A stretch of DNA of 55,367 bases, filler included, from Jimgerdemannia flammicorona (lineage: Eukaryota): NCBI GenBank assembly GCA_003990765.1. It is 2 parts of 2 records of this genome, joined end to end, with 100 filler letters (N's around TTAATTAATTAA, not from the genome) between each part and the next. Parts side by side here need not be neighbours in the genome. Positions count along the whole stretch, not along the records: positions 1 to 27,637 come from RBNJ01000616.1; 1 more part is not named here. One strand, written 5' to 3'. The position numbers and the translations under genes are program-made. Shown here piece by piece: positions 997-27,737 of this stretch. The notes under the pieces were generated by a model. It was given only the letters and a program-made list of their open reading frames with translations, did not search any database and was not told the DNA's origin. Position 1 is the stretch's first letter. Every line of letters begins with the position of its first letter.

Positions 997-1103
997 TAGT
1001 TTATATATATAATATTTATCATATTTAACCATATTAAAATATAATAATATATATTCTTATATATTTATATATATTTATAATTAATTATATATATTTGATA
1101 TAT

Positions 1104-2656
1104 TGTAACAGTGACTCCAGAATGATGACATCAGCACAGGAGACAGTCTTTCCTTATAAGCTACCAGATCAGAGCATAAGAGGATTATATAGTATATGAG
1201 ATGAGTAATGATGACCAACTGTGAGTCATTGTGACCATAGTATAGTATCTTGAGAAATATAAAAAAAGAATCAAGGAACTACAGTAGCAGCAACCAACAA
1301 GACCCATCAATTCCAAAATAGCTCAAAGACTTACTACAAACAAAATGCCTGCTACTCATCAAACTTCAAGGTCAAGGAACCACCAAGACATCTCAGTTGA
1401 AGAAAGAATATTCCAAGACATCAGAAGAGCCATGAAGACCTACTCAAGAAGGACTCTTAGTGTCAATCTGGGTACTGGTGACTCTTATCACTATATTCTC
1501 TACTGCTGTAAAATGGAAACCAGGATCACCATTACTACTAAATACCTCCAAATGTGGCAGGAATATAAAATAGAAAACCTCCTCTGCTGGAAGTTCTCAT
1601 AGGCCAGTACTCAAGAGCTACAAGATGCCACTCCCATGGATATATATGAAATGAGAACAGCTAAGAAGATTCATCAGATCTTCAGGCATACACTATGGTC
1701 GATCTCCAACTTAGAGTATGTTAGAGTCTCAGATTTCAGAGATCTGTCATCCTGCCATATCAATGTACTAGAAGTCAGAGTGGCTACAGAAGCCCAGTCC
1801 ACTATCACCCTCAATATTGATGAAGTAGAAGACTTCTGGCATCCCATTCTTTAGGATAACCCAGACCAATTCCTGCAAGGATTGATCTCAGTATTCCAAG
1901 GCCTAAGCATCCAGGTTAGACCTCTCCAAAATCCCACATTTGTCCCTTATTTTGTAGAAGAGAACCTTATAGATTGGAGAGCCCCTGATTTCCCTACTGC
2001 CAAACATAATGATATCATCCCGTGCAACTTCAAAGCATGCAAAATACACAACATATGCAAGATGCATAACCTATGTAATGACAACAACAACAATGATGAA
2101 TTTACAGACCTCATCTCCTTCGAAGATATCCTAACCTCTGATGATGAGGATGAAGCCTTCATAGTCCTGATCATTCTGCTCTAAGTTTCTTGTTATACTG
2201 AATAATATCAGCACCAGCATTCTGAGGTAATACTGAATAATGCCAGCACTGGCATTCTGAGGTAACACTGAATAATACCAGCACTCTGAACCTATACAAC
2301 TATCAGTGCTAACCCTGGAACTTAGCAGTTTTTCCTATTCTGGTATTTTATTTTAGTTATTGGAATTTATATTTAGCTTTATATCTTAGCAACTATTGAA
2401 TTATATTTTGTATAAATACTCCTCTTATTTTCTCTGAAATAAAGTCAATTCAGTTCTTCTCAGTGCAATATACACACTTTCTTACAAGCAATCTAAGAGA
2501 TAATAAGACAGTTTAAAGATAAGAAGTTTGAGGACTATAAGACCTTGAGAAGGTACTCCAATAAGAACTTGCTTATAATAAACTTAAGTTAGTCTAAGAG
2601 ATACACCTTGAAGAGAATCTGGCATATTTGAAGGACTCAGTGACCACTATGTGATA
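1104..2656 (+). mobile_element. Long solo-LTR-like element (~1.55 kb) with internal ORF
   Basis: Starts TGTAACA, ends TGTGATA (TGTGACA with C>T); ATAT on both flanks (weak TSD in AT-rich DNA); GTATAAATACTC at ~2410 then AATAAA at ~2438; higher GC than flanks. Confidence 0.65.
1345..2184 (+). pseudogene. LTR-borne accessory ORF of unknown function (~279 codons, 2 internal TAG)
   Basis: ORFs 1345-1602, 1636-1854 and 1882-2184 share one frame, separated by single TAG codons; ATG in A-rich context (acaaacaaaATG) with TATAAA ~85 nt upstream; acidic C-terminus. Confidence 0.75.
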
Positions 2657-2866
2657 ATATATAAATTTTAGAAAATTATAATATTAATATAAATATTAAT
2701 TTAACTTACTCAATTATTTTAATATAAATGAAGTATAAGATAGAATAAGAATATTGTTATTCTTAATATCCTCAAATTGATATAGCTAAAATATAGATTT
2801 CAGCTATTTAAGTCTATATTTCAGAGTTTCTAATATAATTTATTCAATATTATTTAACTTCTCTAT

Positions 2867-3306
2867 TATAATAAAACTATATACTGATAGAATTAATATA
2901 TTATAAATAATCAAACTATAAGTTCTGAGTTTTTGTAAAGAAGCACTGAGTTCTAATTATCTATTATAGTAGAGTTCAGATATTACTTTTAGGTTCTTAT
3001 ATTAATAGAAGTGCTATACTTATATCTTAAATTAATTAGACTCAGAATCATTAATATGTCATATTTAAGAATTTTGTAATAAGAATATTACTTTATTCTT
3101 ATATTTAAAGAAAATAGAGCTGAGGTTACAACATACTCAGTACAGAATATATTTATATATATTTGAGACTATATAAATATAGTATACTGGGTATATCTAT
3201 ATATATTTATACTATTTTGAGTAACTATGACTACTAGTCAGAAATTCTATAGAAATTTTCATTAGAATTTTCAGTAGCTTATAGATATATATAATAATTC
3301 ATTATA
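2867..3306 (-). repeat. Gypsy-A 3' LTR
   Basis: Aligns with 24166-24517 over ~340 bp (aagttctgagt...ctttattcttatattt...tatatttgagactata); right end inferred from the adjacent PPT. Confidence 0.75.
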
Positions 3307-3360
3307 TTTTTCTCTTTCTTATCTAAGCCTACTTATTAGACTTAGTACTAAACTCTAGAT

Positions 3361-3703
3361 TAGTACTCTAAAATGAATCAAATCAATTTGAATTAAATCA
3401 AATTGAGAGTCATTTGAATCAAATTGAATTGGAGATTTTTCAATTTGAATAAAGTTTAAATTAAATTAAATTCAAATTAAATTGAGAGTCTAATTCAAAC
3501 CTTATTTTTTAAAATATAATAACTTGATAAAAATATATCCAAATTTAATGATCTTTAGCTTGTTAGATTCCTCTTATATAGAGGAATCTAACAAGCTAAA
3601 GAATATTAAATTTGAATGTGTTTTTGTCAAGTTATTATATTTCAAAAAATAGGATTCAAATTAAATTGAATTGGACCTTTGATTTGATTTATTGAGAGCA
3701 CTA
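3361..3703. mobile_element. hAT-family foldback MITE (343 bp)
   Basis: Ends TAGTACTCT...AGAGCACTA; 8-bp TSD CTCTAGAT (3353-3360)/CTCTAAAT (3704-3711); central hairpin tctttagcttgttagattcctct-tatat-agaggaatctaacaagctaaaga; same terminus as the hAT at 30026-36540. Confidence 0.9.
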
Positions 3704-5373
3704 CTCTAAATACTTATCAAACTGAAGAGCAGTATACTAAACTACTTAAAAGACAATATTACTCTATTATTCATCATTTAGATTAATAATGTTCTCAGAG
3801 AATACTCTACAGAGATAGTCAAGGACTTAGGATCAGATACAGAAAAGGACATAGAGTCTTTTGGCAATAATATAGATATAGTTATTAATAAAAAGATAAG
3901 CTCATTGTTTGGCAGTACTAAGAGTAGCTTATTGATAGATGAGGTGTCTTATCTCATAGTACTTCTTTAATTCTTACTAATAGTAAAAAGTCTAAAAATA
4001 TTGAATTCTTCTAAGATATTATTTGACTTTATTTAAATCTAAGTCTTTAGAGATTCATATGTTGACAGAAAGTAGTTCAGTAGAATTATATTGATATTCA
4101 ATAGCCATAAGAACAGTGGTAGCAATCTTGTTTTTAGTTTATTCTTAGTATTATTATTAGGTACTTATATTGAAATAAGTTATCTATATGAGATTATTCA
4201 GAATATTTATACTTCTCTTCATTAGAGTATTTAGATATATAACTATCTTTTGGAAATTCTATCAGAATTTCTATTATACTAGATATCTATATTGAGTTAC
4301 TATTTCTTCTATATTTGGTAAAAGATTATCTTCTTTTTCTCAAGTAGTATCATATTTGAGATATCTTTTTCATTTTATAAGATAGTACTGAGTAGGCTTA
4401 GTAGTTTGTCCAAATTAGTAATTCTTATAATCTAAAATATTGTCTTTTTTATATTTTAATTACTGATCAATAAATACTAGATCTAAAGATAGTATGGTTT
4501 TTTCTTTAAAGATATTTAAAGTATATATATAGCTAAAGTTAAGATATATATATAAAACACTGAGTGTATTTTCTCTAATTTGTTAAAAGATCCAACTTAT
4601 ATATAACAGGTCTACATTTTTCAAAAATCTTGAATAGTTCAATATAGTAAAGTCTAAGCTTCTTTTTAAGATCTATATTATCTAGAGTCAGATATTAGAA
4701 GCAGAGTAATACTTGTTTTCTTTTTTTGTAGATAGCTTCTCTTTTATTTTTATCATTATATACTACTTATATTCTTTATATCTCTATGAGAACATTTTAT
4801 ACTTGCTGAATATTATTTTATATAGTATCAGTAATATCTTATATATATAGCTAATACTATAGTTAAGATAGTAACTATAAAAGTTTGTAAATATTATTCA
4901 TAGTTCAAGTAAAATAGTATCATATTAGTTCTTATACTTATACTGTTATTATATGCAAATTTGGCTAGGTTTAGCTTTTGTCTTAATTATTTTATTTATA
5001 GTTATAATAGATACTAAATATCTGCTTTAAGATTTGATTAGTTCTTTCTATTTGACCATCTGTTTATAAGTAGTATACTATAGATATTTTCAGTTGTACT
5101 TCTAGACTCTTGAAGAGTACTTGCCAAAAGTTGCTTATAAATTTTGTATCTCAGTCTGAGATAATTACTAATGATAATCTATAAAGATGAAATATATTAT
5201 TAATAAACAGCTATACTATTTCTAATATTATTATAGGAGTAGTTGTTATAATGAAGTAGGTCTACTTGCTGAGATAATTAATAAAAACAATGATCACATC
5301 TCTTCTCTTCTTGGTTTTTAGCAACTGAACAATAAAATCCATTCTGATATAATTGGTAAAAATTGGTAGTGAC

Positions 5374-5837
5374 TATAATGGTTCTAGTTTCTTTAAGAGA
5401 AAGTGGCTAAATATGGAAGTTCTAGTTGATCTAAAGTAGCTTGAAGAGATACTTAAAGGTTTAAGTATTCTTGAAGGATTTCTGGGAGAAAATATTCTGA
5501 GCTTTATTCAAATAGAGAATAAGGATATTTATATATAATCTGAAAGAAAGATCCAGAAGGATCTTGAAAAGAAAGAGAAATACCAAGAAATAGGTTCTCA
5601 GCAAAGCTGACTAATACTATTCAATAATGTTCCAAAAGGTTTCATGACTAGCTAAGACAAGATACTTAGTGCCAAGAAAAGACAAGAATGTTCTAATAGT
5701 GTCTGAGCACTGAGAGAAGATTTCTAAGCAAGTTGAAGGTGATGGAACATAGTAGAATGTTCAAGAAATAATAAAAAAAGACTAACTAAAAGATGTGAAA
5801 ATATACTAAGACAAAATATAACTGTGAAATTGTTACA
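5374..5837 (-). repeat. Gypsy-B 3' LTR (464 bp)
   Basis: Direct repeat of 13092-13556; differences mostly transitions; ends TGTTACA. Confidence 0.95.
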
Positions 5838-8422
5838 TTCCTCTCTCTTTAAGAACCAATGTCTGTTGAGTTTTTAGATAACACAAGACTAGATATACTT
5901 AACCAAAATTTTTCAAACTTGTATCAGCACATTGATAGGGATTGGCTATCCTTATATAGAGCAGAGGGCCTATTACCAGACTAACTGACTGGGAGGGGTT
6001 TGAACCCAGCTAATAGCTTCATTTTGGTAGACTTCTTGTTCATTAAATGTTCTGCTGGTTTCAGGGTCCTAAAGTAAACTTCTAATATATAAGGCACTGG
6101 TTATTGTCATAGGTTATTGACAATCCAAGAAAGTTACTACAGAGATTGAGTAATGTATTTTATCTCAAAGTCTTGAACTAGATCTTGAGAGTTCTTGAGG
6201 TTGATCAGTAGTTCCCAGATAGTATCATATTCAGAATAACCCATCCACTTAACTAGGTATTCAGGATGGCAGTAGCAGATTTATTTGTTAAGAATTTTCT
6301 CAGCTTTATACTCAATATGGTCTTCAATAATTACAGAGGCAGAAGGCTTAGAAATTCAACCAGGATAGGGTAGTGACTGGTTCCAGGTCTTAAGATGTGA
6401 CATATGAAAGACTGGGTATACTCTCATGGTTTCAGGTAGCTTGAGGTAGTAGGAGAATGCAGAGACTTGTTCAGTGATCTCAAACAGTCCAATATACTTA
6501 AGTTGAAACTTGTTTAAAGGGCAGTTGACTTGAGATTATATCTTGAGGTTCTTGGTAGACAGTAGGACTTGATCTCTAATAGTATAAGTGACATCATAGT
6601 GTTTCTTGTCAGTATACTTAGCTTGATGCTATTGAGCCTTCTGAAGATTTATAGTAGCAATCTTAAGTAGTTCATCCATTTTGTCTGTAAGGTTCTTAGC
6701 AGTTGAGACTTGTATTTAACTGGTTTTCTTAAAAGGGAATAGACTTGCAGAGGTCTTGAGATCTTGACTATAGATTAACTGAAAAGGGAAAAGACCAGTA
6801 GATAATTAGACAGCATTATTGTATGCAAACTCTGCATAAGTCAGATAGATATCCTAATTATCTTACTTATAAGAAACATAGTTTCTAAGTATTTGTTCTA
6901 AAGTTCTGTTCATGCACTCAGTTTGTCCATCAGTTTGTGAGTAAAAGATAGTAGATATAGCCAATTGAGTTCCCAGAGTCTTGAAGAGAGTTTGCCAGAA
7001 GTGACTAGTGAACTTGGGGTCACAATCACTAATGATTACTCATGGTAGATCATAGTGACAGAAGATGGACTTAAAGAAGATTCTTGCAATCTTAGGTATA
7101 GTAGCATTGGTAGTGATTAGTTCAGCAACTATAGTCTTGGTCAGGTGATCAACAAATATGATGATAGCATCAGCACCAGATTGAGTTCATAATAGTTGAG
7201 TTACAAAGTCCATGGTAACTTGCTTGAACTTCTTAATAGGAATTGGCAGTAGTTGTAGTAAACTGGTAGATGCTTGGTTAGTAGACTTGTTGTGTTGACA
7301 TAGATCATAGCTGGTAATATAGTTCTTGATTTTCTTGATCATGTTTGGCCAATAGTAGTGGTGTTGTATGTTCTTGATAGTCTTTTCAATTCCCAGGTGA
7401 TCAGCGAGAGGAGAGTCATGGTGTTCTTGCAAAACCTTATAGTGTAGGTTCATGTTTTCAGATAGGTAAACTTGGTCTTGATGATAGATCAGATTGTTCT
7501 TGATAATATATATATCCTTGAGCTCATTCAAGAAAACTCTAGTAGCAACTGTGTCTTCTTTATAAGCTTGTCTGATTTGGTCTAGAAATTCTGATGCCAA
7601 GATAACTTGCATGATTGTGGTGAGGTCTGAGCATCTTTGATAAGGTATCTGATACTACAAGTATCTTGCCAGACTTGTAGATGATCATTGGATTGAAGGT
7701 TTGAAGCTCAAGGCTCCACTTGGCTTATAGACATAACAGAGTAGGTTGGGTGTTGATATATTTGAGGGATTGATGATCAGTAATGATATCAAACTCAATA
7801 TCTTCTAGATAGCATTACCAGTGGTCTAGTGCATATATTATTACTAGTAGTTCCTTCTCATAAGTAGCTAGCTTTGGTTCAGCTGGGGCCAGCTTACAGA
7901 ACTCAAAAGCAATAAGGCAATGTCTTTTACCATCATCTTATAACAGGACTACTCCAATGGTAAAATTTGATACATTAGTAGTGACTATGAATTTTAGGCC
8001 TTGATCTGCATTATGCAGGACTGGAGCATAGGTTAGGCAGTTCTTGAGTTCTTGAAAGGCTTATTGACAGAAGAGGTCCCAGGTGTAGGGTATATAGTGA
8101 TCTGAGTGTGGGGCCTTCTTCATGAGATTAGTCAGTGGCTCAGCAATATCAGAGAAGTTTCTGACAAAGTGGCAGTAATAGCCAGCTAGACCAAGGAAGG
8201 ATCAGAGTTCTGTGAGGTTTGATGGAATGGGTCATTCTTTGATTGCTTCTATCTTATATGGGTCTACTTGAATTTCTTGTGCAGAGACAATATGGCCAAG
8301 GTATTCGACTTATTCTTTGAAGAATTTACACTTCTTGAGCTTAGTGTAAAGCTTGTATTTTCACAGAATCTCCAGGACTATTCAAATGTGTTTGAGGTGT
8401 TCTTCTTTAGTTACACTAAAGA

Positions 8423-10486
8423 TGTAAGAGGGTTGCTTTTTAGGGTAACCATTACATAGTTCTGAAAGGGTTTTCTGGAAGTTCTGGATATTCTGAAAGA
8501 TCATTTTCTTATGGTCAAGATCAATTTCATATAGAGTATATCCTCTACACTTATTGATTTTAAGATCAGGTTGATGTCTCAACCAAAGTCCTTTTTCGGA
8601 CTAGTTCTGGATGTTCAGGATTTTTCGTATTTCAGGAAGTTTAAGAAACTAAGACCAGCTTAGTTGAATTGGCATATCGCTGTAGACAATACCCAATTAG
8701 GAAATTTCGTGATGGGGTTAGGAGTGGGACCTAATAGGGAGCAGATTTACTTAAGAGTGATTTGTGGGTTATTAAATAGGTTTATTCGCTATTCATGATA
8801 TTACTATACTAGGAGTAGTTGTGTAAAGAAATATTGTGGGAAAGTGTTCAGGAGTTGTGTTCAGATTATTCAAGTCTGAGATTCTGAGGTCTGGGGGAGA
8901 GAGTATTTATACTAGTGAGGGGCTATCTGAACTATGCTAAATATGGATGTAGCACTAAGTGCCTTGCTGAGTAAGAATACAGTCATGTAGTACAAGTGTG
9001 ATCTGACATATCAAGAGATCGTCTGACTGCTGAGTCAGTTCACAGTCATATCATACAAGGCTAATCTAACTATGCTATGACTGCTAAGCTATTTATAGGT
9101 TTAGACACTATCTGGGTAGTCTTTGATAATATCACCATCAATGATATCATCTCTGATAAAGTAGTCATCTAGGAAGAGTGGTTCACGGATTACTTCTCCT
9201 TGTTGGCTGAGATAGTAATACATTGGAACTTCATCTCCATCCCACAAGATGGCATCATCAGTCTCATATACTGGGTAAGGTGTTGGCGAGTGAAGGAGGG
9301 GTGCATCATCTTTGCTTTCATTGAATTCACTGTCTGCATACCTTCTGTAGATTATAGCACTATGAGTCACAGGGTTGTAGTAAGTTGGTGGCTGTGGTTT
9401 ATGTTGTTTGTACTCAGGTAGTGGAGTTATTGGTTCGATCTCGAGGGTTGTCTGAAGGTACAGGTTGTGTTCTCCAGTCTCTTCATTATAGTTAAAGTAA
9501 TTGGAGGTAAATGTGGATTGGTATTCATGCTAGTAGTCATTGTCCCAATAAGTCTCATAGGTAGTTATGAACTGTTGTATATTCATAGGCAAGGTTGGCA
9601 GTGTGATCAGTGTTGACAGGGATCCTTGGCTTGAGGTCATATCAGTGTCAGAGGAATCATTGTTTTCTGCTTCATCTTCATTGAACTGGATTATATCATA
9701 GATATTCTTCATGACATATCTGACTTGAGGCATTTACAGGATGTGGTCATCAGAGTGCAGGAAGGTTCTGTCTATAGTCTGGACATACTTGAGGTACTTG
9801 TAGTTGAGTTCTTGTATCATGTCATCGATTTGGCCATAAGACAGAGTAGCAACCATTTCACTGGTAGTAACTCGGAGGTGGAGAATGAAGGTGCTATACT
9901 CATAGAAGAGTTCTTGATGTTTACAGGTGATGAGCTTCTGATATTAAGATATCTGGGTAATGTCTGTGTCATAGTAGTATTTGACCATGTCTTCTAGGAG
10001 GCAGCCAATCTGATAGTAGCTTAAGATTTGTCCAATTCAGTGGGCCTCATTAAGCATGTTCAGAGCATTCCATCAGGCTTCCACAAAGTAGAGGGGTGCT
10101 AGGCTATGGATATTCATGAGGGACAGAGGGGGTGTAGCTCGGTTAACAATGGCATTCCAAATGTCAGCACAGATGTGGTTGTAGATCTTGGTGGTCATAT
10201 TTGTATGTTTGGAAGTTGTAGTTGTTGTTTGTTTTGGTTCTCTGTTTTGACATGTCTTAGTGCTCAGTATATATATATTTGGTCCTAATTGGTAAGATTC
10301 TGTTTGTGTGAATCTTGTATTCTGTGACTTCATGTTAACTCAGCTTTGTTCACTGTGACTTTAGTTTGACTCAGCTTCGTGATTATACAGGTGATTTCCA
10401 GATTTGTTCAGAGATTGCATGTGATTTCTGTGGCTTGTTCAGAGAGTGATGTGTGATTTCTGTGACTTGGAGGTTGTACACTTACA
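8423..10486 (-). mobile_element. 2064-bp solo LTR with internal ORF, inserted beside the RT YLDD motif of Gypsy-B
   Basis: Ends TGTAAG...CTTACA; perfect 5-bp TSD AAAGA (8418-8422, 10487-10491); removal restores YLDDILIFSVTKEEHLKH; minus-strand GTATAAATACTC (~8901-8912) then AATAAA (~8781-8786). Confidence 0.92.
9101..10198 (-). pseudogene. LTR-borne accessory ORF of unknown function (~366 codons, several stops, no frameshift)
   Basis: ORFs 10073-10333, 9530-9733 and 9101-9370 share one frame; likely start ATG 10198 (acaaatATG) with a TATA-like run ~70 nt upstream; acidic C-terminal half. Confidence 0.8.
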
Positions 10487-11612
10487 AAAGATCAGGATGT
10501 CATCAAGATATACCAACAGGAAAATGAATAGTTGGTCCTTGAATATCTTGTTTATCAGGATCTAGAATGTGGTTGGTACATTGGTGAGACCAAATACTAA
10601 GACCAGAAATTCATAGAGTCCAAAGGGGGGTCATGAACACAGTCTTGGGAATGTCTTCTGGCTTGATTCAAATCTGATGGTATCCTGATATAAGGTCTAA
10701 CTTAGTGAAGTACTTGGCATTCTTGAGAGTATCAAAGATTTGATCAATCAAGGGTAGTGGATAGCAGTTCTTAACAGTGAGTTTATTGAATACATAATAG
10801 TCTATACATATTTGTAGAGTACTATCCTTCTTCTTGACAAATAAGACTGGTGAGCCATAAGGAGATTTTCTTGGCTAGATGGCTTCTCATGCAAGTAGTT
10901 CTTCTAGTTCCTTCTTGACTACTTCAATTTTGAGTAGTGATATGTAGTACATGTGTTTCTTGGGTAGTACAGCTCCTAGGGTCAGTTTGATTTCATGATT
11001 AACTTCTCATATAGGTGGTAGATCAGGTAGTTTGTCTGGAAAGATATCCTTGAATTTTTCTAGCAGTAACTTGATGCTTTCATTGACTGATAGTCTCTTG
11101 TCTTATTTCTTGAGGTGGATCATTACAATAAAGACATGCATTATCTTCTTGAGTGCTTTTTTATACTGTATAGCTGACAGTGTTGCAATCTGAGTCTTGC
11201 TTGTAGTCTTGTCTGTCTTGATTGTAATATTGGCTCCATCTTGAAGTAGGGTGACTTCATTCTTGCACCAATCAATGTCTGTGTTGTATTTCATAAGCCA
11301 GAGTTTTCCTAAGATCAAGTCATGATCTCCTAGTGATGCAATCTCAAAGTCTACTCATTCTCAATATTTCTAGATCTTAATGGACAGTTTGGTAGCAATT
11401 GACTTGATGGGGTATAGAGTACTATCTGCAGTGACTATACTATTGTTCTTGGGTGCAGGCTTGGTGAGGATCTTGAGGCTTTTAATGAGATTCTGATTAA
11501 TGAAGTTCCCTGCAGCTCTATTGTCTATGAGTATTTGAACTTCTCTTTCTTTGACTAGGCCTTTAAAAATGAGCATAGCTTGAGCTTGATTTTCACTAAG
11601 ACTTATTACTTG

Positions 11613-11990
11613 ATCAGTGCTATTAAAACCCTTTTGATCTCATTTGGTTTCATGAAGTTCTTAGACTTCTGTAATCTTGAGTTGACTGGCTTTTTCTAGA
11701 ATCATTTGCATGACTCAGTCTCCTTCTTTAACTGTGTAGTCTTGATCCTTCTGGTTGACAAGCAAGACTTGAACTTGTCCTCAAAAGTCTGAATCAATGA
11801 CACTAGTACCTATATCCAAATGATGTTTGATACTGAGTTCTGATTATAGTGCAATTCTAGTATAATGTCCTTCAGGGCATTGAACTGCAATTCTAGTAGA
11901 CACCAGAGTGTGGTCCTTGGCTGGAATAGTGACTTGTTTGACTGAGTATAGGTCAAGACCAATGGCTCCTTCTATTTGATATTGAGAGAC
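11613..11990 (-). pseudogene. dUTPase domain of Gypsy-B
   Basis: Reads GAIGLDLYS...CPEGHYTRIAL*SELS...VIDSDF*GQVQVLLVN...EGD*VMQMIL...TK*GSKGF: all five trimeric dUTPase motifs, with conserved Arg codons converted to stops. Confidence 0.9.
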
Positions 11991-13091
11991 CTAGGCCTTC
12001 AGATGAAGCTTCTTGATCTTGAGCTCAAGTTGACTGGTGGTGGGATTGATAGGTGTGTCCTTGGACAACACAGTGACTAGTCTTGAGGGTTTGCTAGTCT
12101 TCCTAGGACATTTGGTTGCAATGTGTCCTGTTTGGCAACAGAAGAAATAGGCTCCAGATTTCTTCAGATAGTTCTTTTCTTCAGGGGTGAGCTTGGTGTT
12201 CTTTTTGTTCATAGTGTCTAAGTCCATTGATGCTGGGCCAACTGTTCTTGGTTGGTTTCTGTGGTGGTTCTCAAAGTGGTTCTTCTTGTAGTGTTCTGGC
12301 TTGAAGTGGTTGCCAAAGGTGATAATATCAAATCTATCAGTAATTTTTATAGCTTCATCAAGAGTTTTAGACTCTTCTAGCTTGACCTTGACTTGTGTGT
12401 TTCTCTTCAGACCTCAGACATAGCAATCTATCTTTTCATCCTTAGATACTGCTGGTAGCTCAAGTAGGATTGACAAGAATTGTGTATTATAGCTTTGTAC
12501 AAACTTGAGTTGCTTGACATTTACTAGCTTGTCTCTGGCTAGCTTGGTAGCATTAGTAGGCTTGAACTACTTGTAAAGGGCTCTCTTGAAAGCTTTCCAA
12601 TCTCTGATTTATATATATGAGTATATATATATAACTATGATATAATTATATCACCAGATAGCTGTATTTCCTTAAAGAAGTGTGGTGGCAAATTGGACTT
12701 GCATGTTGTCTTCCATTCTTGTAAGCTCAAAGTATTGATCTAACTGGAAGGTCCATGTATCTGTAGATAGTCCTCCTTGATAGCTGTCAAAGGTATTTAG
12801 CTTGAGTGGCTTGAAACTGACTAGTGCTATAGCAGGATGTGATGTATCTGCAGTTTATGTTTTCTGCTGTTCTAGTTATACTTGCAGTTCTTGAATTTGG
12901 TAGGCCATAGTATTGATCATATCTTCTATGTTGAGCTGTGATCCTCCTACTTCTTCTGTGACAGAGAGGTCTGACTGATAGACTGACTCTTTGTAGCTTA
13001 TTTCAGATTTGTATGACTAGTTGTGACTGGTTTCTGAATTCATATGAGGTTTCTTAATAAAGTAAGATATAATGATACCACTGCTACTAAG

Positions 13092-13556
13092 TGAAATGGT
13101 TCTAGTTTCTTTAAGAGGAAGCAGCTAAATCTGGAAGTTCTAGTTGGCCTAAAGTAGCTTGAAAAGATACTTAAAGGTTCAAGTATTCTTGAAGGATTTC
13201 TAGGAGAAAATATTCTGAGCTTTATTCAGATAGAGAACAAGGATATTTATATATAATCTGAAAGAAAGATCTGGAAGGATCTTGAAAAGAAAGAGAAATG
13301 CCAAAAAATAGGTTCTTGGCAAAGCTGACTAATACTTATTCTACAATATTCCAAAAGGTTCTATAACTAGCTAAGATAAGATGCTTAGTGCTAAGGAAAG
13401 ACAAGAATGTTCTAGTGGTGTCTAGGTGCTGAGAGAAGGTTTCTAAGCAAGTAGAAGGTGACAGAACATAGTAGAATATTCAAGAAATGATAAGAAAAGA
13501 CTAACTAAAAGATGCAAAAATATACTAAGATAAAATATAACTGTGAAATTGTTATA
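13092..13556 (-). repeat. Gypsy-B 5' LTR (465 bp)
   Basis: Direct repeat of 5374-5837, adjacent to the PBS. Confidence 0.95.
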
Positions 13557-16196
13557 GTAACTATAGAGCTAGTATCTGGTTACTAGATTTATATCTTTGA
13601 TAGATATTATAGGATTTAATATAATTCTTGATGTCAGATATTATTTTAGATCAGTAAAAGTCTCAGACAATATTCTTATATATCTTGTCAAATTTTATAT
13701 ATCTAGCTATAGATATATTATATAGTTCTTATAGGATTTATAAGCAGATAGAGTATCAGAGACTCAGATTCTTGTATTTTTAAGATATATATCTCTGTTT
13801 TAGACAGATACATTCTTATAGACCTTCTTTATGATATTACTATCTTCTTCAGAAATTTGTTTAGTAATTTTTTATATATTAGTATAGTATACTTCTTCTT
13901 AACTTTTTTAAATAGGCTGATGACAATATGACTAATTGTAGTAAGATCATCTTTCTGAGCACTCTGGGAGATTATATTAGCTACTTTATTCTTAGTTCTA
14001 GTAATATACTTAATTTCAATATTAAAGGATATAAGTATCTATATCTATCAGATCTATCTTTCTATAAGAATTGACTATATCTGAATATATCAGAGAGTGT
14101 AATAGTCTGTTTATAAGATGAATAATTTATCAAGTAAGAAATATCTCATACATATAGAGATTGGATAATGGTGAGGAGTTTCTTATCTTACATGATATAG
14201 TTCCTTTTATATTTATTGCATTTCTAGAACAAATAGATGACAGAGTGTTCATATTGAGTCAGGATAGCTCTAATAGTAATATTTAAAATATCAGTGATAA
14301 CTATAAAGAGTCTTATTAGATCAGAACCAATTAAAATCAGTATATTAGTCAGTATTCTCTTGAGAGTATTTATAGCTTTAATACATCCTTCTGTCTATTC
14401 TTTTTTAATATTGGCTCCCTTTCTGATGAGACTTATAAGTAGGGAGACAATTGTAGAGAATTCTTAAATAAATCTCCTATAATATTCTGCTAGTTTATTG
14501 AATCCTCATAGAGACTTGAGAGTCTTTGAGATAAGCTAATTACAGATTGCTTAGATCTTCTTAGAATCAATAGTAATACTATTTTCTGAGATAATGTATT
14601 CTAGATATTCAATTTCCTTCTTAAAAAAGTAATATTTCTTCTTTTTTGCTAATAACTTATATTTATAAAGTATATCAAAAATAATTTATAGATATTAATG
14701 GTTGATGATGCTACTTGTGCTATATACCAGAATGTTATTCAGATAGATCAGAATGAATACTTTAAGATATTTATAAAAAATATTATTCATCAGTATTTGG
14801 AAGATTACTAATATATTGATAAGACTAAATGATATTATATAGAATTCATAGTGTCCAAATCTTGTTCAAAAAGCTGTCTTGAGAATATATTTCTCTTTGA
14901 TGTAAATTTGATAATATCCAGATACAAGATTATTAAGTAAAAAGATCTTGGCCTTATATACTTACATATATAGTTAAATAGTTCATCATTTATAGGAGTA
15001 TAAATTGGTTCTTAATAGAGATCTTATTACTCAGTAATTAATATATATGTAGAGACTTCTATCTTTCTTATAGTTAAAGAGTATTGATATACTATATTGT
15101 AATTTCAATAGATAGATAAGACCTTTGCTTACTAATTCTGCTAATTATTCCTTAAGGATCTCTAGCTCAGATTGAACTAGTTGATAGATTTTATAGTAGG
15201 GTGGGTCTGAATCAGAAATAGTTTCAATGCTATATTTTACTTGAGTAGATAGCAGTCCTTGAAGTTCTTGAAAAACATCTTCATATTTCTTGAGTATTTC
15301 TTGGAGGTTATCTTCCTCATTATCTTTATCCTTCAGAAGTTCAGAGAGTTCTTTATTATCTTTCTCTGAGGTTTTCTTGACTATACATATGTAGATATAC
15401 TAGACTGATTTCCAAATTAGCTTCTTTATCTAAATGATAGAGATAACATCATATCTGGGGTTGGATTTCTTTTTGATATACTTAGATTATAACTTAATAT
15501 CTCTTAGAGAGATTATATTGATTTGCCAATCAATGTTAAGTGAGCCAGGAAGAATAAGATTGTATCTAGAGAGATATATAATGTAGAAGGTTTGTCTTAT
15601 AGTATAATTTCTGAGTTGTAGAAATGCATTCTTACATATCTTAGAGAGTTTCTATATTGTTTTATTTTCAAATATAGTAATGTTTTCTTCTGAATTCCTC
15701 TGTATCTTGAGGTGAAATTTTTTAGCAGTTTTTTTTGTCAAGATAGTACTTACTTACTCTACTATTAATAAGAACTTAAACAGAGTTTTCTTTGATTTTT
15801 TCTTAGAGATAGATATATTCTATATTACCTTCTTACTAGGTAGCAATTGTTTCTGAGGTAGTCTCTTCTTCTCAATCTTATACTTCTTTATCTTTATCAT
15901 CAATATTCTTGATTTTTTCTTTCCATCATTCTGGAATAGTTGACTTATACTTCTTAAATTCAAGGATACATATAATACATTCTCTTATATATTCAAAACA
16001 ATACATCTTAATTCTATAAGGATATTATCCTATAAGAATATATTCATTAGCAATATACTAATACTATTTCTGGTCTCAGTTTTGAGATTCTTTGATATAG
16101 ATGATCTTCTATATCTTAGTCTTCTCCTTGGCCTTATTATAATACTTTTCTATTAATTCAAAAGCTTTTTCTTCTCTATTAGAGAGTAATAGTTTA

Positions 16197-19100
16197 CCTT
16201 TTACCAGTAACATTCAGGTGACATAAGACTCAGATAACACTTTCTACTAAAAGGTGACTAGTAATATAGACAGCAATAACTGTACTAGTGAGTGTGATAG
16301 CCAGGGGGGCAGCAGTGCCTTTGACTGGCAGCATGTAGAGAGGAGGAGGAGGGATGGTTTGGGAATACCAGGGCCTCCTATGGTAGGCCATGGTGCTGGT
16401 GGTGGAGGAAGAGGCAGATTGAGGCAATGAGGAGGAGAGAGAATGACCTTTACAGATAAGGTCAAGATGGAGAGAATGGCATCTGGTCTGGATAGTTGGC
16501 TGGGCCTGGGGAAGGAATCAACAGCTACTGTTGGGGGACAGAGAGAGGCCCCCATGGGAGGGTTGGGCAGTAGGGGAGGTAGGGGAGTAGGGGCTGGAGA
16601 TGTGACTACTGATAGAGCTATGACTAGAGATCTGGAAAAAAATCCAGATATAACAGTAGTTGGCAGTTCAGGATAAAGGGTGGGCATGAGGCCCAGGGAT
16701 CTAGCAGATGGCATGACAGGCATGGTGTCAGCACTGTTACTTAAGAAATCAAGATCAGAATTTGCCATTACATTGTATTTCCAGGGCTTGGCAGTGACTA
16801 CAAAGATGATCTTGGGGCTGGTGGTGCAGAAGGTAAAGGGGGTGGCTTCAGTGAAGTTCTTAAAGGAGAAAGAAGAGATTGAGATTGGGTTTGAGGAAGA
16901 GGTGTTGTTGTTGGAGACCATAGAGAAGGGGGTAATAGTGGATGGAGTGATAGTTTCTATGGCTAGGTATATATACTGAGACTCCTGAGTGGTACAGTTG
17001 ACAGTGTTGGATCTTTCTATAGTATTGAGGGAGAGGGCCAGAGAGTTGATTGTGGAGGTGATCAAGGAGTATGGAGAGATTGTAGACATTAGGTTCAGAA
17101 TCTGTAAGGGTACTGAGCTCTGAACTGGTGATATCAACATCAAGATGAGGCTGGCTGAGAAGAAGAACACAGGGAAGATGAGAGACTGGCTGGTGATCCT
17201 TAAGTAGAGACCAGTGGAGTGCAAGATCTCAAGGGTGAAAGGGACACTGGAAGAGGAGGAGGACTTGCTGGAGGCTTTTAAGGATCTGATAGGAGTAGTT
17301 GAGAGAAGGAGACAGGCTTGGAAGTCAAGATGGTAGTGGAGATTGTGGATGAAAAAAGGATTTGGATAGACAAGGGGATGTGGGAGAAGATGCAGGGGAG
17401 ACAAATCCAGAAGGAGTTACTAGTGAAGATAAGAGGAGGTATGGTAGAAGGTGGGGCCAGAGAAGGTGGTGCTGTACTGAGAATGAGCACTTGGGCTGGA
17501 GAGCACAGAGTGGCTCTAGAGGTGGCCCCAGATAGATCAAATGAAGAGGGTCTAGGTAGTATAGTAGAGGATGCTGAAATGGGAGAGGAGGTTTGCTCTC
17601 TATATAGTGTCCCAAGCAGAGCAGGGGGGGAGGAGAAATTGCTGGATATACTGGAAGAAGAGTGAGATGAGTCAGGAAGGAGGAGTGCTCTGGTGGACCC
17701 TGTGGTGGGAGTTGAAGGAGTTGCCCAGGGTATTGCTGAGGCAGTGGATGAAGAGAAGTGACTATGGAAGACTCTAGAGAGAGTAGCAGCTGAGGAGCTT
17801 AGAAGAGAGAACTTCTAGGTACTAAGTGATTGGTACTGGGAGGAAATTCTTTGTAGGGAGGAAATGCTGAGAAAGATTAGGAATGAAATCCTGACAGTAC
17901 TACTGGAGTCAGAGAAATATCAAGTTGATGATCAGAAAGAGGAGACCCTTCAGGAGATTGCAAATGACTGGGCAGTATACTTGTGGGGCTCAAGGAAGGA
18001 GTTGGATAAATAGAGAGTGGTATGCACAGATTATCAAGTAGAAATAGAGGTTGTAGATGAGGTGGAGTATCAGGAAATTTTGGAAACACTAGATGCTCAG
18101 GCTGTAGCAGAGAATGGTTTAGAGGCAGAGTGGTATTTAGATCTAGCTGGGGATGGAATGAGCATGGAATTCTAGATGGGAATCTTAAATATCAAACATT
18201 TTTTCAATATGAATAGTACAACTAGAATCTTTTCTTTGAATATAAATGGGTTGAGGGATGTAGCACTATGTAGGAATATCTTTAGCTGACTGAGGGGACT
18301 GGATGCAGATTTCTTCTTATTGTAGGATATACAGTATGAGGTGGATATGGACTTACTAGACTAGACTCAAGAATGGGGTGAGGCAGCTGTGTGGACTGAG
18401 CAGATGGGCATTCTGATTTAGAAGGGGATGAGAAACATTGGAGACATTGGACATTTGGGGAGTAGATTGGTGTGGAGAATATGGAAGAGGCCTAGATGGA
18501 ACCCTTTGACTATTGGGTCATATTATTGCCCAGCTGAGAGGGGGAAATATATTTATTGAGTCAGAGGCCTGAGGGAAGCTGGTATCATTGGTGAGGCTGA
18601 AATTGATTACCTAGAGAGAGAGATTTCAATATAGTATGAGATAATGAAATAGACAGAACTGATGATGGGAGAGTAATGAGAGGCAGAAGTGGTGGGTTCA
18701 ATGATTTGGATGGAGATTGAGAGATTGAGCTCATTGGTTGACTCAGGATGACAGTTCTGGGTGGATTGCTGAATTTATATCCATTGGGTGGCAGGGCTGG
18801 ACTCCAGAATTAACTGAGTATTGATGGCAGAGTACTGGGGAGTAAATGTCTAGGATATACTAGAGGTGGTTTGGTGCCCATGATTGGATCACTGAGGTCT
18901 AATTGGGGGTGGGAGATTTGGGGGAAGTGGGGATGGGCCAGGATATTGGGAGCTAAATTCTTCTTTACTGGAGAATAGTTCCTTATAGACAGACTGAGAG
19001 GTAGAAGTTGTTGAAAAGATTAGTAGATGGTAGGAGTAGGGATTAGTGATTGAAGATCACTAACAAAGGTTGAAATCAAGTGCCCAGGGGTACTGAAGGG

Positions 19101-21935
19101 AGGTGGGGAAAAGAAGAAGTGCTCAGAGGTAGTGGCAAGTGCAATGGGCTTTATAGAGATTGGTGGTGCTTCTGGGAAGATGGGCAGGGTTACTGGAGGA
19201 TTGGAGAGCAGCAGATTGGAGAATTCAGTAGATATGAAAGGAAGTTGATAAGTTAAAGGAAGTGCTATGAATGGAGAAAGAGATTCAGTTAAAGGAGATA
19301 GTGGTAAGGTTATGATGGCAGGGGTTGGAGGAGGGGGAGAGGTCCACTAAATTTCTTTCATAGTTACTTCAGGCTCAGAGAACCAGACAGCAGTAAGAAG
19401 AGATTCTGAATAAGGAGGAGATGATGGTAGTAGAGATTCCTAAGATTCTGTGATTGCTGAGAACTTGCTGGGGGAATTTATAGAGTGAGGAGAAAGAGAG
19501 GGAGGATGCCCTGAACATTGAATGGCAGTTGGAGGATTGGCATCCAGACCCAGCTCTGGGTCTGGGGATACTGGGGGATCTAGTGAGGGGGGAGGAATTT
19601 CACAAGGTCTTGGCTTCGATGAGTAAAGGGACTGCTCTAGAAGAGGATGAACTGCTCTGGGATTTTTGAAAGAAGATGGCCAGGGTGGAAGTAGTATTGG
19701 AGGAGATAACAGTGATGAGTAATGAGGTCCTTTGATCTGGATTGTGGATTGGGGGCCAGCACCTAGGGCTGGTCTCACTGCTCTATAAGGATAAGAGATG
19801 AAGAGAAGATTGGAAGAACTGGTAACTGATTATGCTCCTTGATATAGACTGCAAGCTGGTGACAAAGATTTTAGTGACTAGACTGTAGGAGATTGCTCAG
19901 CAGATACTAGAAGTGGAACAGAGGGGATTTGTTAGTAGATGGTTGATCTAAGATAGAACTGCCTGAGTCCATGGGGTAATGAAGGAGCTTGGGCAGCTGG
20001 GGTTGATGGCCAGTTAGTGTTTCTAGATCAGGAGAAGGCATATGACAGGGTGAGGAGGGTCTGTCTAGAGGGGGTGCTGAAATGAGTAGGAGTTCCCCCA
20101 GGAATCAGAAAGTTATTAATCAATCTACTGAAAAACAATTAAGCAGTATTAATGGTAAATAAGTACAGGGGTGTGACTTTTTCTTTAGGTTATGGGGTGC
20201 TGCAAGGAGATTCTTTGTTATTTATCTTATATGTCCTCTCCTTGGAGCTCCTATAGGACAGGATCAGATATTGAATTGGGAGTTTGGACATTTTGGGAAT
20301 TAACTGAAAAGTTGGAGCTTTTGCAGATAATATGGTAGTTAAACTGGATTTATTGGAGAATGTAGAGGAGTTAAGAAGGTCTGTGGAATGGTATAAGAGG
20401 GGCTTGGGGGCCAAACTCAACTGGCACAAATACAAGACTCTGGTGCTAGGCAGTGAGATAGTTGGGGGTAATGTAATTGGGACAGTAGTGCCAGCAGGAG
20501 AACTGGTCCAGTATTTGGAGATCTACTTTTCAGTATATGAGTCTCTCCTGCCCCATGCATGGTAGGAATAGTAACTTCTAATATGGGGAAATATACTCTT
20601 GAGGTGGGGTGGCTGACATATATCCTTAGTAGGAAGAGTGATAGTGCTGAATGTGTACTGGCTGCCAAAGCTGTGGTATGTAGGATATTATCTGGACTTC
20701 TCAGTATAAGTGGTCAGGTGGCTTCTGAAGATGGCAAGATCATAGATCTGGGCTGGGTGGCAAAGTTAGATTGGATGAGAGGTTCTTACTCTATCTGTTG
20801 ATAGAGGCAGGCTAGGCTTAGTGGACTTTACCAAATGCCTTCACTGTCTGAGAGCATGGTGGCTGAAGAGGGTGAGCAAGTTGAGGGGCCAGGAGTGGGT
20901 ACCCTCATGCAGAGAGTGTGGGAAGTCTGATATTCCCCTCATGGAGTGACTGGTGATCTGCTTGCAATAGTAGCCCTGGATTGGAGCAGGAGGATATAGT
21001 ATAAAGGCTTTTGGTGGGGAGTGGTGGATGGTGTAAGGAGAATTGGACTTCAGTGGTAGAGTAATGAGAGAGAGGAGGACTGGGGTCTACAGATGTAGAG
21101 ATGGGACAAGCTTTTGCTGAGAGATGCATTGGTGGAGGATTTCTAGCTTGGCAATGAAATAGATTGCATATGGGGCCTAGGGGGGACCTTTGGCCTGTAG
21201 CATAGCAGAGGGTGGGGATTGGTAAGGAGTGGGACTGGAATAGTCTTTGGCCTTGGAGCAAGCAGATGATGCAGTGACTTCTCTTCAAGTTCTGGGTAGT
21301 ATGGTGGAGGTTTCTGAGATAGAATGTGATACTGAACTATTAGTCTGAGTAATTGGTGGCAGATGGCATATTTGAGTGTAAGGAATGTTTGGATGTTGGC
21401 CAGGAGGAGAGAGTGATACAAATGTCTGAACATTGGCTTAGTGAGTGTGAAGTCTTGGGGGAGTTTTGGTACTATATTGTAAATTAGTTAAGACTATGGA
21501 CGCTAGTGGGGGGGGAAGGAGAGAGATGGGGGGACCTCTGCCAAAGACTAGTGAGTGGGGTTAGAGATGAATAGTTGACCTTGGGCTGGGTTCTGGCAAT
21601 TTGGGTTGGGCTGACTAGGTATTGGCTGCATGTATTTGAGGAGGGTCAGTAGGTTGAGATTGGGACTAAGGTAGCATAATGAGAATGGTTAATACTTGAC
21701 ATTTTGAATAGCTGGTGGAGAGGGTGGGGACCAGGTGGGGGGGGACTGATGGAGTTTGGTGAAATATATTTGCCAAAAAAGTGGAGAGAGGGTTCAGATA
21801 GCAAATGACTGGGTTATCCTTTAATGGAGAGAGATAGAGAGTAGAGAAAAGAATCCAAGAGGTATTGGGTGAGGGGTGGGGGTGGAATTGTATTATTATT
21901 TATAGATTGAGGTAATAAAGAGAAGTCTGAGTGAC

Positions 21936-21983
<48 letters not shown>
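16197..21983 (+). mobile_element. Full-length decayed L1/Tx1-like LINE (copy 1)
   Basis: 5' end ccttttaccagtaacattcagg (shared with 46281); ORF1 remnant; ORF2 from ATG 18209 (IFSLNINGL; FLDQEKAYDRV; GVLQGDS; AFADN; YLEI); 3' gtgact+poly(A); TSD GAGTAATAGTTTA (16184-16196)/GAGTGACAGTTCA (21984-21996). Confidence 0.92.
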
Positions 21984-21986
<3 letters not shown>

Positions 21987-22290
21987 TGACAGTTCATTTA
22001 TTTTCTTGACTTTGAGATTATTATATATTATCTCAATAATGGCTTTGGGCAATTTGTTTTCCACATATAATTTCAACTGTCTTCTATTTAGTATTATATA
22101 GTAGGATCTTAATTTTATCTTTGAATTCTTGATCTATAACTCCTCTAGCTATATAGAGTCTCTCTTCCTTAATCAGACTGCTTCTTTCTATAAGACAAAT
22201 ATAGGTTTCTTTAGGGACTTCTATTCTAACACCTGTGCTAATAGTCACTTGCTTGTTTAGTTTGATGAAAACTTCTATACTAGAGTAGAG
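21984..22290 (-). pseudogene. dUTPase domain of Gypsy-A, split by LINE copy 1
   Basis: DYNLYSS...ISTGVRIEVPKETY...ERSSL...RGVIDQEFKDKIKILLYN; a motif-5 remnant (NREEKAFE) continues at ~16155-16183 on the other side of the LINE. Confidence 0.8.
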
Positions 22291-24165
22291 ATTATAGTCA
22301 GTATTAGATTCATATATTTTGTCTAGAATTTTTACAATGATGATGTAGAATTTCTTAATCTTGATCTTTTTAGAGATTCTTTTGGAAATATCTCCTATTA
22401 TAGTGATAGTGTGTAAGGAGAATAGTTCTTTATTTATGTTGGTCTTTTTGTTAGGATATATGTCCTTTTTTTTTATAGTAAAAACATCTCTTTTCTTTAT
22501 GAGTTCTTCTATTTCCTTTAGATAGTTTCTTGAATCTACCTTGTAGTCTTGATAACTCATTCTGGGGTTCATACTTCTTCTCAAATTGATGCTATTTATC
22601 TCTCTTATTGTTGTTTCTATTGTCTCTTAGCCTTTGAGCTATAAGGATAGTATGTACTCTGGTAATGGCTTGTTCTATATACTATTACTCATATAGATAA
22701 TCATAGAGTTATTCTTGTTTATAAAATTTTTCTAATAACTATCTAGAGTTAGCATTGAAGAAGTTGGTAGCTCAGATTCTATTTACAATCTGTTCTCATC
22801 AGCTATATTCTACTCCTATAATATCTAGGAGGAGTTTCAGTCTTATAGTAAATACTTTAAGATCTTCTTTTCTATTATTATAGAATTAAAGATTCTTGAG
22901 CTTTGTTCTGACTTCAGCAATGGGGGTAGAGCTGTAGAACTATTAGATGATTAGTTTTTTTCAATCCACAGTAGCTAGATAGGCTTCATTACTAGAGTAA
23001 TTATTATCTTCTTTACTTGTATTGATTTTACTATAGGTTTTTCAGATAAGAGGGTATATTGATAAATTATACCACTTCTGAGTAGCCATACCTATAAAAT
23101 GAATAGTAACTTTCTCTATTTGTAAGTCTGCAGTTATATAGAGATCTTCAATCTCATAGTACTCATTATTATTGAGAGTACTGTCTGGATTTTGATTGTC
23201 ATTTAATTCATTAGTATAATAATTAATATATATCAACTTATTTTAAGAATATTGTTACTTAGTCTACTTTATCTTTGAATAGTATAAGACAGAGGCCTTT
23301 TGTAGATTTGTTTGTCTTAATGCTGAGATAAAAGGCTTAAGTGAGTATAGTTACTTGGTCAGCCAGTACTACTATCTTGTTATTTGCTAATATTATTCTA
23401 CTATTTCTGTTATCTGTTTAGTAAAATAGCTGAAGTTCTTCTTTTATTATATATTATGGTATATTGATTGTAGTTTGGGGTTGACTCTTCTATAATATTA
23501 CTGAGATGGGTAAACTTATAAACTAGTAGTCTTGATGGAGTAACTATTAGATCTGCTGTGATTTTTAATAGGCTTAATACTCTTAGTAGTAGTTCTGTAA
23601 CAGTACTGAGACTACTAATATCAGGTTCAGATATCTTTTCAATTATCCTCCTAGGTCTGGATGATGTAGCAGAGGTCTTGCTAGATCTAATAGCTTGTAG
23701 TTCTTATTATTGAATTATTCTTACTTGTATATAGCAAATTTAATAATAGAAGTGAGATTTCTTTTAATAGATATAGTATTTTTTATAGTTCAGAAAGACC
23801 TTGGCTTTGTAGTAGCAATTGTTGGAAAAGAGATTTAGAAAATTTTCACTTATAGTCTTAATAGATTCTTATATATATTTTTTATAAAAGAGTCTACTGA
23901 CTAGTTTGTTGAATTTTTTCTTAAATTTAGTAGTATAGAAGACTTCTTTATTGAGTTTATTAAACTTTTAGCTGGTATAAGTTTTAGTCTACTCAGTAAT
24001 AATTTTGTTGAATTCTTTAGCTTAAGTCTAGAGAGTATTCAGAGTAAAGGTACTTTTTGACTATTGCTGACAATATTGATAATATTGACTAATTCTGATT
24101 ATCTGTAGTAGATTCTTTAAAGAAGATTGCTTATGGGTAAGAAGTAACTTCTACTGCTACTAAAT

Positions 24166-27637: not shown

Positions 27638-27737
27638 NNNNNNNNNNNNNNNNNNNNNNNNNNNNNNNNNNNNNNNNNNNNTTAATTAATTAANNNNNNN
27701 NNNNNNNNNNNNNNNNNNNNNNNNNNNNNNNNNNNNN
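27638..27737. other. Assembly gap with artificial TTAATTAATTAA spacer
   Basis: 44 N + TTAATTAATTAA (stops in all six frames) + 44 N = 100 nt. Confidence 0.97.

Follow-up and report, generated by a model that had tools for sequence, protein, structure and literature searches.

Retroviruses provide known examples of accessory genes located within the U3 region of the 3′ long terminal repeat (LTR) or overlapping it, namely sag of mouse mammary tumour virus (MMTV), bel/bet of the foamy viruses and nef of the lentiviruses. Such LTR-internal accessory genes are a hallmark of complex retroviruses, and in foamy virus an internal promoter is known as well. In LTR retrotransposons, additional open reading frames (aORFs) are described from the interval that separates an LTR from gag and from the one that follows pol, ahead of the 3′ LTR. 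Here we describe two repeats, unit 1 and unit 2, in a 55,367-nt stretch of the Jimgerdemannia flammicorona genome (assembly GCA_003990765.1; the whole stretch is referred to as the window). With moderate confidence, we take them to represent two different high-copy LTR families, most likely present here as Ty3/Gypsy solo LTRs, in which a long U3 holds a complete sense-strand open reading frame (ORF), designated ORF1 in unit 1 and ORF2 in unit 2.

The aORFs of plant LTR retrotransposons have been reviewed (PMC7264820), and the brtn ORF in the Boty/BcGypsy1 elements of Botrytis (10.1101/2021.04.13.439636) is a fungal precedent. In the review, wording for an ORF in, within or inside an LTR, or for an LTR region, occurs 0 times. 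In open-access text we found no report of an ORF inside the LTR of a retrotransposon, fungal elements included, the matches being either retroviral or irrelevant.

The initial annotation placed the units at 1104-2656 on the plus strand and 8423-10486 on the minus strand, and both do lie there. The layout that it gave them is also present in the sequence: in unit 1 a TGTAA start is followed by a TATA-like run, an ATG at 1345, a near-open frame of 279 codons, GTATAAATACTC and AATAAA, and in unit 2 the same series runs from a TGTAA end through an ATG at 10198 and a near-open frame of 365 codons to GTATAAATACTC and AATAAA. Its claim of CA-type ends stands for unit 2 (CTTACA at 8423) and is not clear for unit 1, the 3′ end of which reads GTGATA; the flanks of unit 1 are AT-rich and of low complexity, and a putative duplication, tatat, lies within them. 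Both units are A/C-rich islands of complex sequence within very AT-rich DNA. In both, the TATA-like run lies 70-85 nt 5′ of the ATG and short tandem repeats precede the TATA boxes. The frames stand out clearly from their surroundings, with 2 stops across the ORF1 span against 13 and 25 in the other two frames, and 5 across the ORF2 span against 19 and 41. As had been noted, the units share no DNA similarity (best blastn E 0.39), having only the 12-mer GTATAAATACTC in common.

Several lines of evidence point to these units being LTRs. Unit 2 is nested in the reverse transcriptase (RT) of a Ty3/Gypsy chromovirus, hereafter the host element, and its termini are of the TG...CA type and form a terminal inverted repeat of 6 bp, while the flanking duplication, at 5 bp, is within the 4-6 bp expected of an LTR. 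On the minus strand the RT frame of the host element reads YLDDILIF, is interrupted by unit 2, and continues S-V-T-K-E-E-H-L, such that excision of unit 2 together with one copy of tcttt restores it. The paired LTRs of the host element open with TGTAACAATTTC and carry TATAAATATCC, then GAATAAAGCTCAG approximately 20 nt further on. Unit 1 opens with TGTAACAG and carries GTATAAATACTCC...GAAATAAAGTCAATTCAG, whilst unit 2 opens with TGTAAG and carries GTATAAATACTC...CCTCAGAATCTCAG...GAATAAT. The host-LTR module TATAAATATCC-N-GAATAAAGCTCAG is thus matched in unit 1, as it is in L001, a metagenomic locus carrying a relative of ORF1 (see below), and a looser version occurs in unit 2. This TATAAATAYYY...AATAAA module, common to the units, the paired LTRs of the host element and L001, is consistent with the signals of a U3-R-U5 structure. 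The pattern TATAAATA-YYY-(8-45 nt)-AATAA[AT] has 5 matches in the 55-kb window, 4 of which fall in the units and in the LTR pair of the host element. The fifth, at 4153-4211 on the minus strand (TATAAATATTC...AATAAT), lies in very AT-rich DNA and may be a heavily decayed LTR or a chance match.

No terminal direct repeats were found inside units 1 and 2, and the units are therefore not miniature LTR-internal-LTR elements; nor did either contain gag/pol or Pfam domains. The LTR-like nature proposed in the initial annotation is thereby upheld by the termini, the 5-bp duplication of unit 2, the start and TATA/poly(A) core shared with the host LTRs, the lack of internal repeats and the high copy number described below. 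On this evidence units 1 and 2 are, with good probability, solo LTRs, and their U3, R and U5 parts can be putatively assigned from the sequence. The coordinates of the units and of the host element are given in Table 1. The host element carries a dUTPase domain (about 11990-11615) between gag and protease, as well as a Tf2-type SH3 domain and a chromodomain; many of its frames are interrupted by stops.

Table 1. Coordinates, along the window, of the two units, their component features and the chromovirus in which unit 2 is nested.
Feature	Position	Strand	Remarks
Unit 1, LTR-type repeat, probably solo LTR	1104..2656	+	5′ end TGTAAC clear, 3′ end uncertain
Upstream TATA-like run, candidate internal promoter	1258..1267	+	~80 nt 5′ of ORF1 ATG
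ORF1, 279 codons plus stop, decayed	1345..2184	+	In-frame stops 1600-1602, 1852-1854
35-nt tandem repeat, 3 copies	2192..2296	+	Separates ORF1 from core TATA
LTR core of unit 1, putative U3/R boundary	2410..2443	+	GTATAAATACTC 2410-2421; AATAAA 2438-2443, ~20 nt further
Host Ty3/Gypsy chromovirus, unit 2 nested in its RT	5364..13554	-	Pfam: gag, dUTPase, protease, RT, RNase H, integrase, chromodomain
Paired LTRs of host element	about 13554-13082 and 5835-5364	-	~470 bp each, 88-91% identical
Unit 2, 2064-bp LTR-type insertion, probably solo LTR	8423..10486	-	Ends TGTAAG...CTTACA
Target-site duplication copy 1	10487..10491	-	tcttt on minus strand
Target-site duplication copy 2	8418..8422	-	tcttt on minus strand
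31-nt tandem repeat, 2 copies	10315..10376	-	5′ of TATA-like run preceding ORF2
TATA-like run preceding ORF2	about 10277-10268	-	From sequence
ORF2, 365 codons plus stop	9101..10198	-	5 in-frame stops: codons 42, 54, 85, 155, 223
Direct repeat, 2 copies, 43-nt units, starts 63 nt apart	8965..9070	-	ORF2-to-core-TATA interval
LTR core of unit 2	8865..8912	-	GTATAAATACTC 8912-8901, AATAAT 8870-8865; canonical AATAAA 8786-8781

A search of sequencing runs listed one run, with a small share (0.08), and no RNA run. The copy number of the units was gauged from the short contigs of one public run, labelled soil metagenome (X1), which may be related to the source of the window. Contigs with 80-100% likeness to positions 1000-10700 (n = 5875) were placed and their depth summed per 324-nt bin. 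The summed depth was 169-1631 in the bins of unit 1 and 589-2809 in those of unit 2, compared with 2.5-44 in the flank at 2944-5211; the host LTR reached 403-451 and the internal bins of the host element 34-88. At the resolution of the bins, the depth steps agree with the unit boundaries. Being several-fold to hundreds-fold deeper than the flank, both units are therefore high-copy repeats. Within unit 2, the R-U5 part (8452-9099) has a depth of 2072-2809, 3-4 times that of the ORF-bearing U3 part (9100-10395, 589-816), and in unit 1 the depth falls to 169 over the variable C-terminal segment of ORF1 (1972-2295). This suggests LTR subfamilies with a common R-U5 in which the ORF region differs or is absent.

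We then turn to the ORFs themselves. Among 5.8 billion protein clusters, ORF1 has 6 relatives by single-sequence search and 7 by profile search (P0002-P0008), intact or partial and 43-72% identical to it. The contigs that encode them are environmental (ENA or JGI) and 0.8-1.6 kb in length; none of the relatives has a Pfam domain. P0002 (271 aa, intact) aligns with the whole of ORF1, the identity being 64-65%. Conserved parts are the start context and the C-terminal ...DEDEAPxxLNFLL, and the segment ahead of that end is variable. A scan of JGI metagenomes with 537 pattern matches yielded a single locus, L001, a JGI metagenome contig of 1345 bp with an intact relative of 323 codons; its frame has 0 stops against 15 and 22 in the other two. 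L001 has an LTR context like that of unit 1, with ATATAAAAG approximately 60 nt 5′ of the ATG and GTATAAATACCCC...GTGAATAAACCTCAG 3′ of the ORF. Similar scans found no relatives among 266 pattern matches in prokaryote genomes and, with both families, none among 176 and 143 pattern matches in IMG/VR.

Intact frames of the ORF1 family have 271 and 323 codons and an identity of 47-65%. Comparison of ORF1 with L001 over 211 codons gave proportions of nonsynonymous (pN) and synonymous (pS) differences of 0.24 and 0.69 and a ratio of nonsynonymous to synonymous rates (dN/dS) of 0.15, and over 246 codons a dN/dS of 0.17, values that are rough since dS is near saturation (pS 0.69-0.70). Even so, synonymous changes are in large excess. 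The in-frame stops of ORF1 sit at sense codons of its intact relatives, and its differences from these relatives and from the X1 contigs are mostly transitions. The relatives read EIGNLL where ORF1 has the KIENLL of YKIENLL, bearing out an earlier guess that GAA there stands for GGA. The intact relatives and a dN/dS of about 0.15 mark ORF1 as a conserved coding gene, as initially proposed; the copy in the window is dead, and the gene is, judging from these comparisons, maintained by selection elsewhere.

ORF2 has one relative, P0001, an intact frame of 247 aa that is 59-60% identical to the last 251 codons of ORF2, that is, its C-terminal two thirds. When 1.84 billion representatives were searched exhaustively by HMMER, the ORF2/P0001 profile, which has 247 positions and leaves the first 114 residues of ORF2 outside, returned only P0001. 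Constraint on ORF2 rests on this one intact frame of 247 residues and is plausible. Both ORF copies in the window are dead, with stops plus many transitions. From the evidence at hand, an accessory ORF embedded in U3 is likely for the family of unit 1 and plausible for that of unit 2.

The two proteins have a similar general make-up. The isoelectric point is 4.0-5.2 across the ORF1 family and ORF2, and the acidic tails that had been remarked upon are real, the net charge of the last 60 residues being -8 in ORF1, -13 in ORF2 and -8 to -15 with the relatives included. The N-terminus of the ORF1 family is Arg-rich (...RRAMRTRSRR...), with a charge of +4 to +8 in the first 40 residues, and ORF2 has a Tyr content of 9.7%. 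Pfam gave no family at E <= 1 for ORF2, P0001, P0002, P0003 or the L001 ORF, and none at E <= 0.01 for ORF1. Feature scores in the ESM Atlas peaked at 0.83 (P0002), below the 0.9 bar for a lead, with no usable match for P0001, and structure comparison there gave a template modelling (TM) score of at most 0.33. AlphaFold2 models had a mean predicted local distance difference test (pLDDT) of 44.9 (ORF1 family) and 31.6 (ORF2); at this low confidence they predict helix for the first 140-185 residues and coil for the remainder. Both proteins are probably largely disordered, with a long acidic C-terminal part bearing D-I-I hydrophobic-acidic motifs. A reading of the D-I-I and LNFLL motifs as SUMO-interaction-like or as resembling a nuclear export signal (NES) was considered, and we make no claim for it. 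The combination of a basic N-terminus with an acidic, hydrophobic-studded and probably disordered tail is seen in many regulators and adaptors rather than in enzymes, and it therefore favours a regulatory role in trans. We infer that the product may serve the element in trans as a regulator or adaptor, transactivator-like or RNA-handling; an enzyme or a structural protein seems less likely.

The initial annotation went further and aligned the two proteins by eye as members of one LTR-encoded family. If so, ORF1 and ORF2 would be diverged homologues and a single protein family would be spread over different LTR families. The position and orientation of the ORF are alike in both units, and YEIGNLL in the ORF1 family and YQIGCLL in ORF2 lie at a comparable distance from the N-terminus. 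Moreover, the best local alignment brings together the blocks that are most conserved in each family (PTFVPYFVEENLID with PLFLDDYFIRDDIID; PYFVEENLIDW against DYFIRDDIID), with acidic-hydrophobic repeats of the D-I-I type next in both, and hhalign sets DDIIxxDVI against DDIIDGDII. The two proteins further share their acidity and their acidic tails, and both low-confidence models suggest an N-terminal helix and a C-terminal coil. However, this homology fails pairwise, profile and database tests alike. The Smith-Waterman score of 42 compares with 35.9 +/- 5.1 for shuffled sequences and is reached by 69 of 500 shuffles. The gapless block of 32 residues on which the alignment by eye had leant holds 7 identities and has a BLOSUM62 score of 6, and a better 32-mer block was found in every one of 200 shuffles of ORF2. 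Alignment of the two family alignments by hhalign gave a probability of 1.8%, and the hidden Markov model (HMM) of the ORF1 family scored 0.5 bits on ORF2, equalled by 54/1000 shuffles. Neither family leads to the other in the databases, since the word search with the ORF1-family profile found no ORF2 relative and the ORF2/P0001 profile search no member of the ORF1 family. Both family profiles are thin (effective sequence number, Neff, 1.6), and remote homology therefore keeps some weight; we regard it as unlikely. ORF1 and ORF2 are, on these comparisons, not detectably homologous, and their likeness is limited to general make-up.

Another explanation is that the units are not LTRs and instead are small mobile units, each with a single gene, that end in short terminal inverted repeats and are flanked by a 5-bp duplication, for example non-autonomous elements mobilised by a retroviral-type integrase or a transposase. 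The direct signs at unit 2 are indeed only the 6-bp terminal inverted repeat and the 5-bp duplication. Moreover, self-BLAST found no second copy of unit 1 or unit 2 in the window, a paired arrangement was not observed, and both units are far longer than the 470-bp LTRs of the host element. Against this, a genuine paired LTR has in common with the units its TGTAAC start and, at a matching relative position, the TATAAATA/AATAAA core, and the tandem repeats 5′ of the TATA boxes are like LTR enhancers. No long terminal inverted repeats were found in the units, and neither a transposase nor any other domain was found by Pfam. We consider this explanation quite improbable. That the frames are not genes of an element at all, being chance open frames or functionless relics of captured host sequence, would fit the broken state of both window copies, the failure to find a Pfam family, the low-confidence folds, the want of a usable atlas match and an A/C-rich strand composition that reduces stop frequency in some frames, but is very improbable given a dN/dS of 0.15-0.17 between the window copy and L001, the intact frames, 271 and 323 codons long and with an identity of 47-65%, in which start context and C-terminal end are conserved, and the 15 and 22 stops in the other frames of L001.

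The reading that we favour, of U3-embedded ORFs in two LTR families, would work as follows. The U3 would be unusually long, about 1.3 kb in unit 1 and 1.6 kb in unit 2, with the ORF upstream of the LTR core promoter. The order of parts would be the TGTAA end, tandem repeats and a TATA-like run, the ORF, further tandem repeats, the TATAAATA box, the poly(A) signal, U5 and the other end. Within a full-length element, this arrangement would put the ORF into the 3′ LTR, as part of its U3, and hence at the 3′ terminus of the genomic RNA. Whether it stands in a solo LTR or in one of a pair, the upstream TATA-like run might in addition drive a transcript through the ORF to the LTR poly(A) signal, and would in that case act as the promoter of the ORF itself. 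Since such a transcript, starting 5′ of the ORF, would end at the poly(A) site of the LTR, a solo LTR could stay a self-contained transcription unit. In active relatives ORF1 would be kept by purifying selection. A bolder extension is a lineage of fungal-type Ty3/Gypsy elements with U3 accessory genes and internal promoters, the LTRs of which, thousands of solos included, would be potential stand-alone genes for a factor that boosts transcription or blunts silencing, with ORF1 and ORF2 as fast-evolving versions of one gene. We think this extension improbable.

A number of observations weigh against the favoured reading, in addition to the roughness of the dN/dS values mentioned above. No pair of copies flanking gag-pol was seen in the window. 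The 3′ boundary of unit 1 and its target-site duplication are ambiguous in AT-rich DNA. L001, the sole relative locus with DNA, is 1345 bp in length and stops short of both unit ends. For ORF2, 5.8 billion clusters and 1.84 billion representatives yielded one relative, which is partial. Depth is uneven within the units, and many family members may lack the ORF part or differ in it. Lastly, the poor models make the picture of a helical N-terminus and a disordered C-terminus a weak one.

Other features of the window were also recorded. At about 13600-15600, on the minus strand, lies an older and very AT-rich Gypsy remnant with RNase H and an integrase zinc-binding domain, into which the chromovirus has inserted. 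In tblastn searches 5 of the 7 ORF1 relatives matched 15184-15399 on the minus strand within it; the best E was 0.31, and the matches, which are neither significant nor independent, were rejected. This segment is the protease-RT linker (...YEDVFQELQGL...) of the old, decayed Gypsy copy, and it is the best conserved block of the ORF1 family that gives the weak matches. Two non-LTR elements resembling long interspersed nuclear elements (LINEs), with a mutual identity of 64%, lie on the plus strand at about 16000-22150 and about 50000-54900. Both are unusually rich in G on the sense strand (GC skew 0.45-0.50), and the first has a weak RVT_1 match and a long terminal A run near 22.1 kb. Adjoining this A run, at about 22040-22320 on the minus strand, is a second dUTPase-domain fragment (E 1.3e-12), which probably derives from a further Gypsy element with a dUTPase. 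Two genes of host type lie where the window is richer in GC: an AAA-ATPase_like gene (PF09820) at 39441-40926 on the minus strand, split across two stop-to-stop frames, and a DUF4246 gene, of a mainly fungal family, at 44653-45876 on the plus strand. Two runs of 44 Ns (27638-27681 and 27694-27737) are separated by 12 bases.

With the copies in the window dead and a shared protein family unsupported, the present value of these units is that of a lead and not of a demonstrated system. If their status as LTRs is true, solo LTRs can retain coding capacity after the element itself is lost, and trans-acting factors would be carried in the portion of the element with the highest abundance in genomes. 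The units would then offer a concrete candidate for self-regulation, or for evasion of silencing, in a repeat-rich and AT-rich genome.

Ordinary solo LTRs of fungal Ty3/Gypsy chromoviruses, for which the 470-bp LTRs of the host element can stand, resemble the units in their TGTAAC start (TGTAAG in unit 2), TATAAATA/AATAAA core and high copy number, and resemble unit 2 also in TG..CA ends, a 5-bp duplication and nesting inside other elements. However, the units are 3-4 times longer, and their U3 has an ORF of 279 or 365 codons with an upstream TATA-like run. With the aORFs (PMC7264820) and brtn (10.1101/2021.04.13.439636), the units have in common the presence of extra, lineage-specific ORFs of unassigned function besides the gag-pol of Ty3/Gypsy elements. 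They differ from the aORFs in that the ORF lies inside the repeat itself, and the sequences are unrelated. The closest parallels in position are sag, bel/bet and nef, which likewise are sense-strand ORFs in or overlapping U3, duplicated in both LTRs and located at the 3′ end of the genomic RNA; the candidate internal promoter would, by analogy, parallel that of foamy virus. Unlike these genes, the units belong to a fungus-like AT-rich host and to an element that is Ty3/Gypsy-like and not one of the Retroviridae, and have no sequence relation to them (no Pfam match). Extra ORFs as such are already known from LTR retrotransposons; what these units point to, likely in the family of unit 1 and plausibly in that of unit 2, is an accessory ORF of an LTR retrotransposon in the U3 position otherwise occupied by those of retroviruses.

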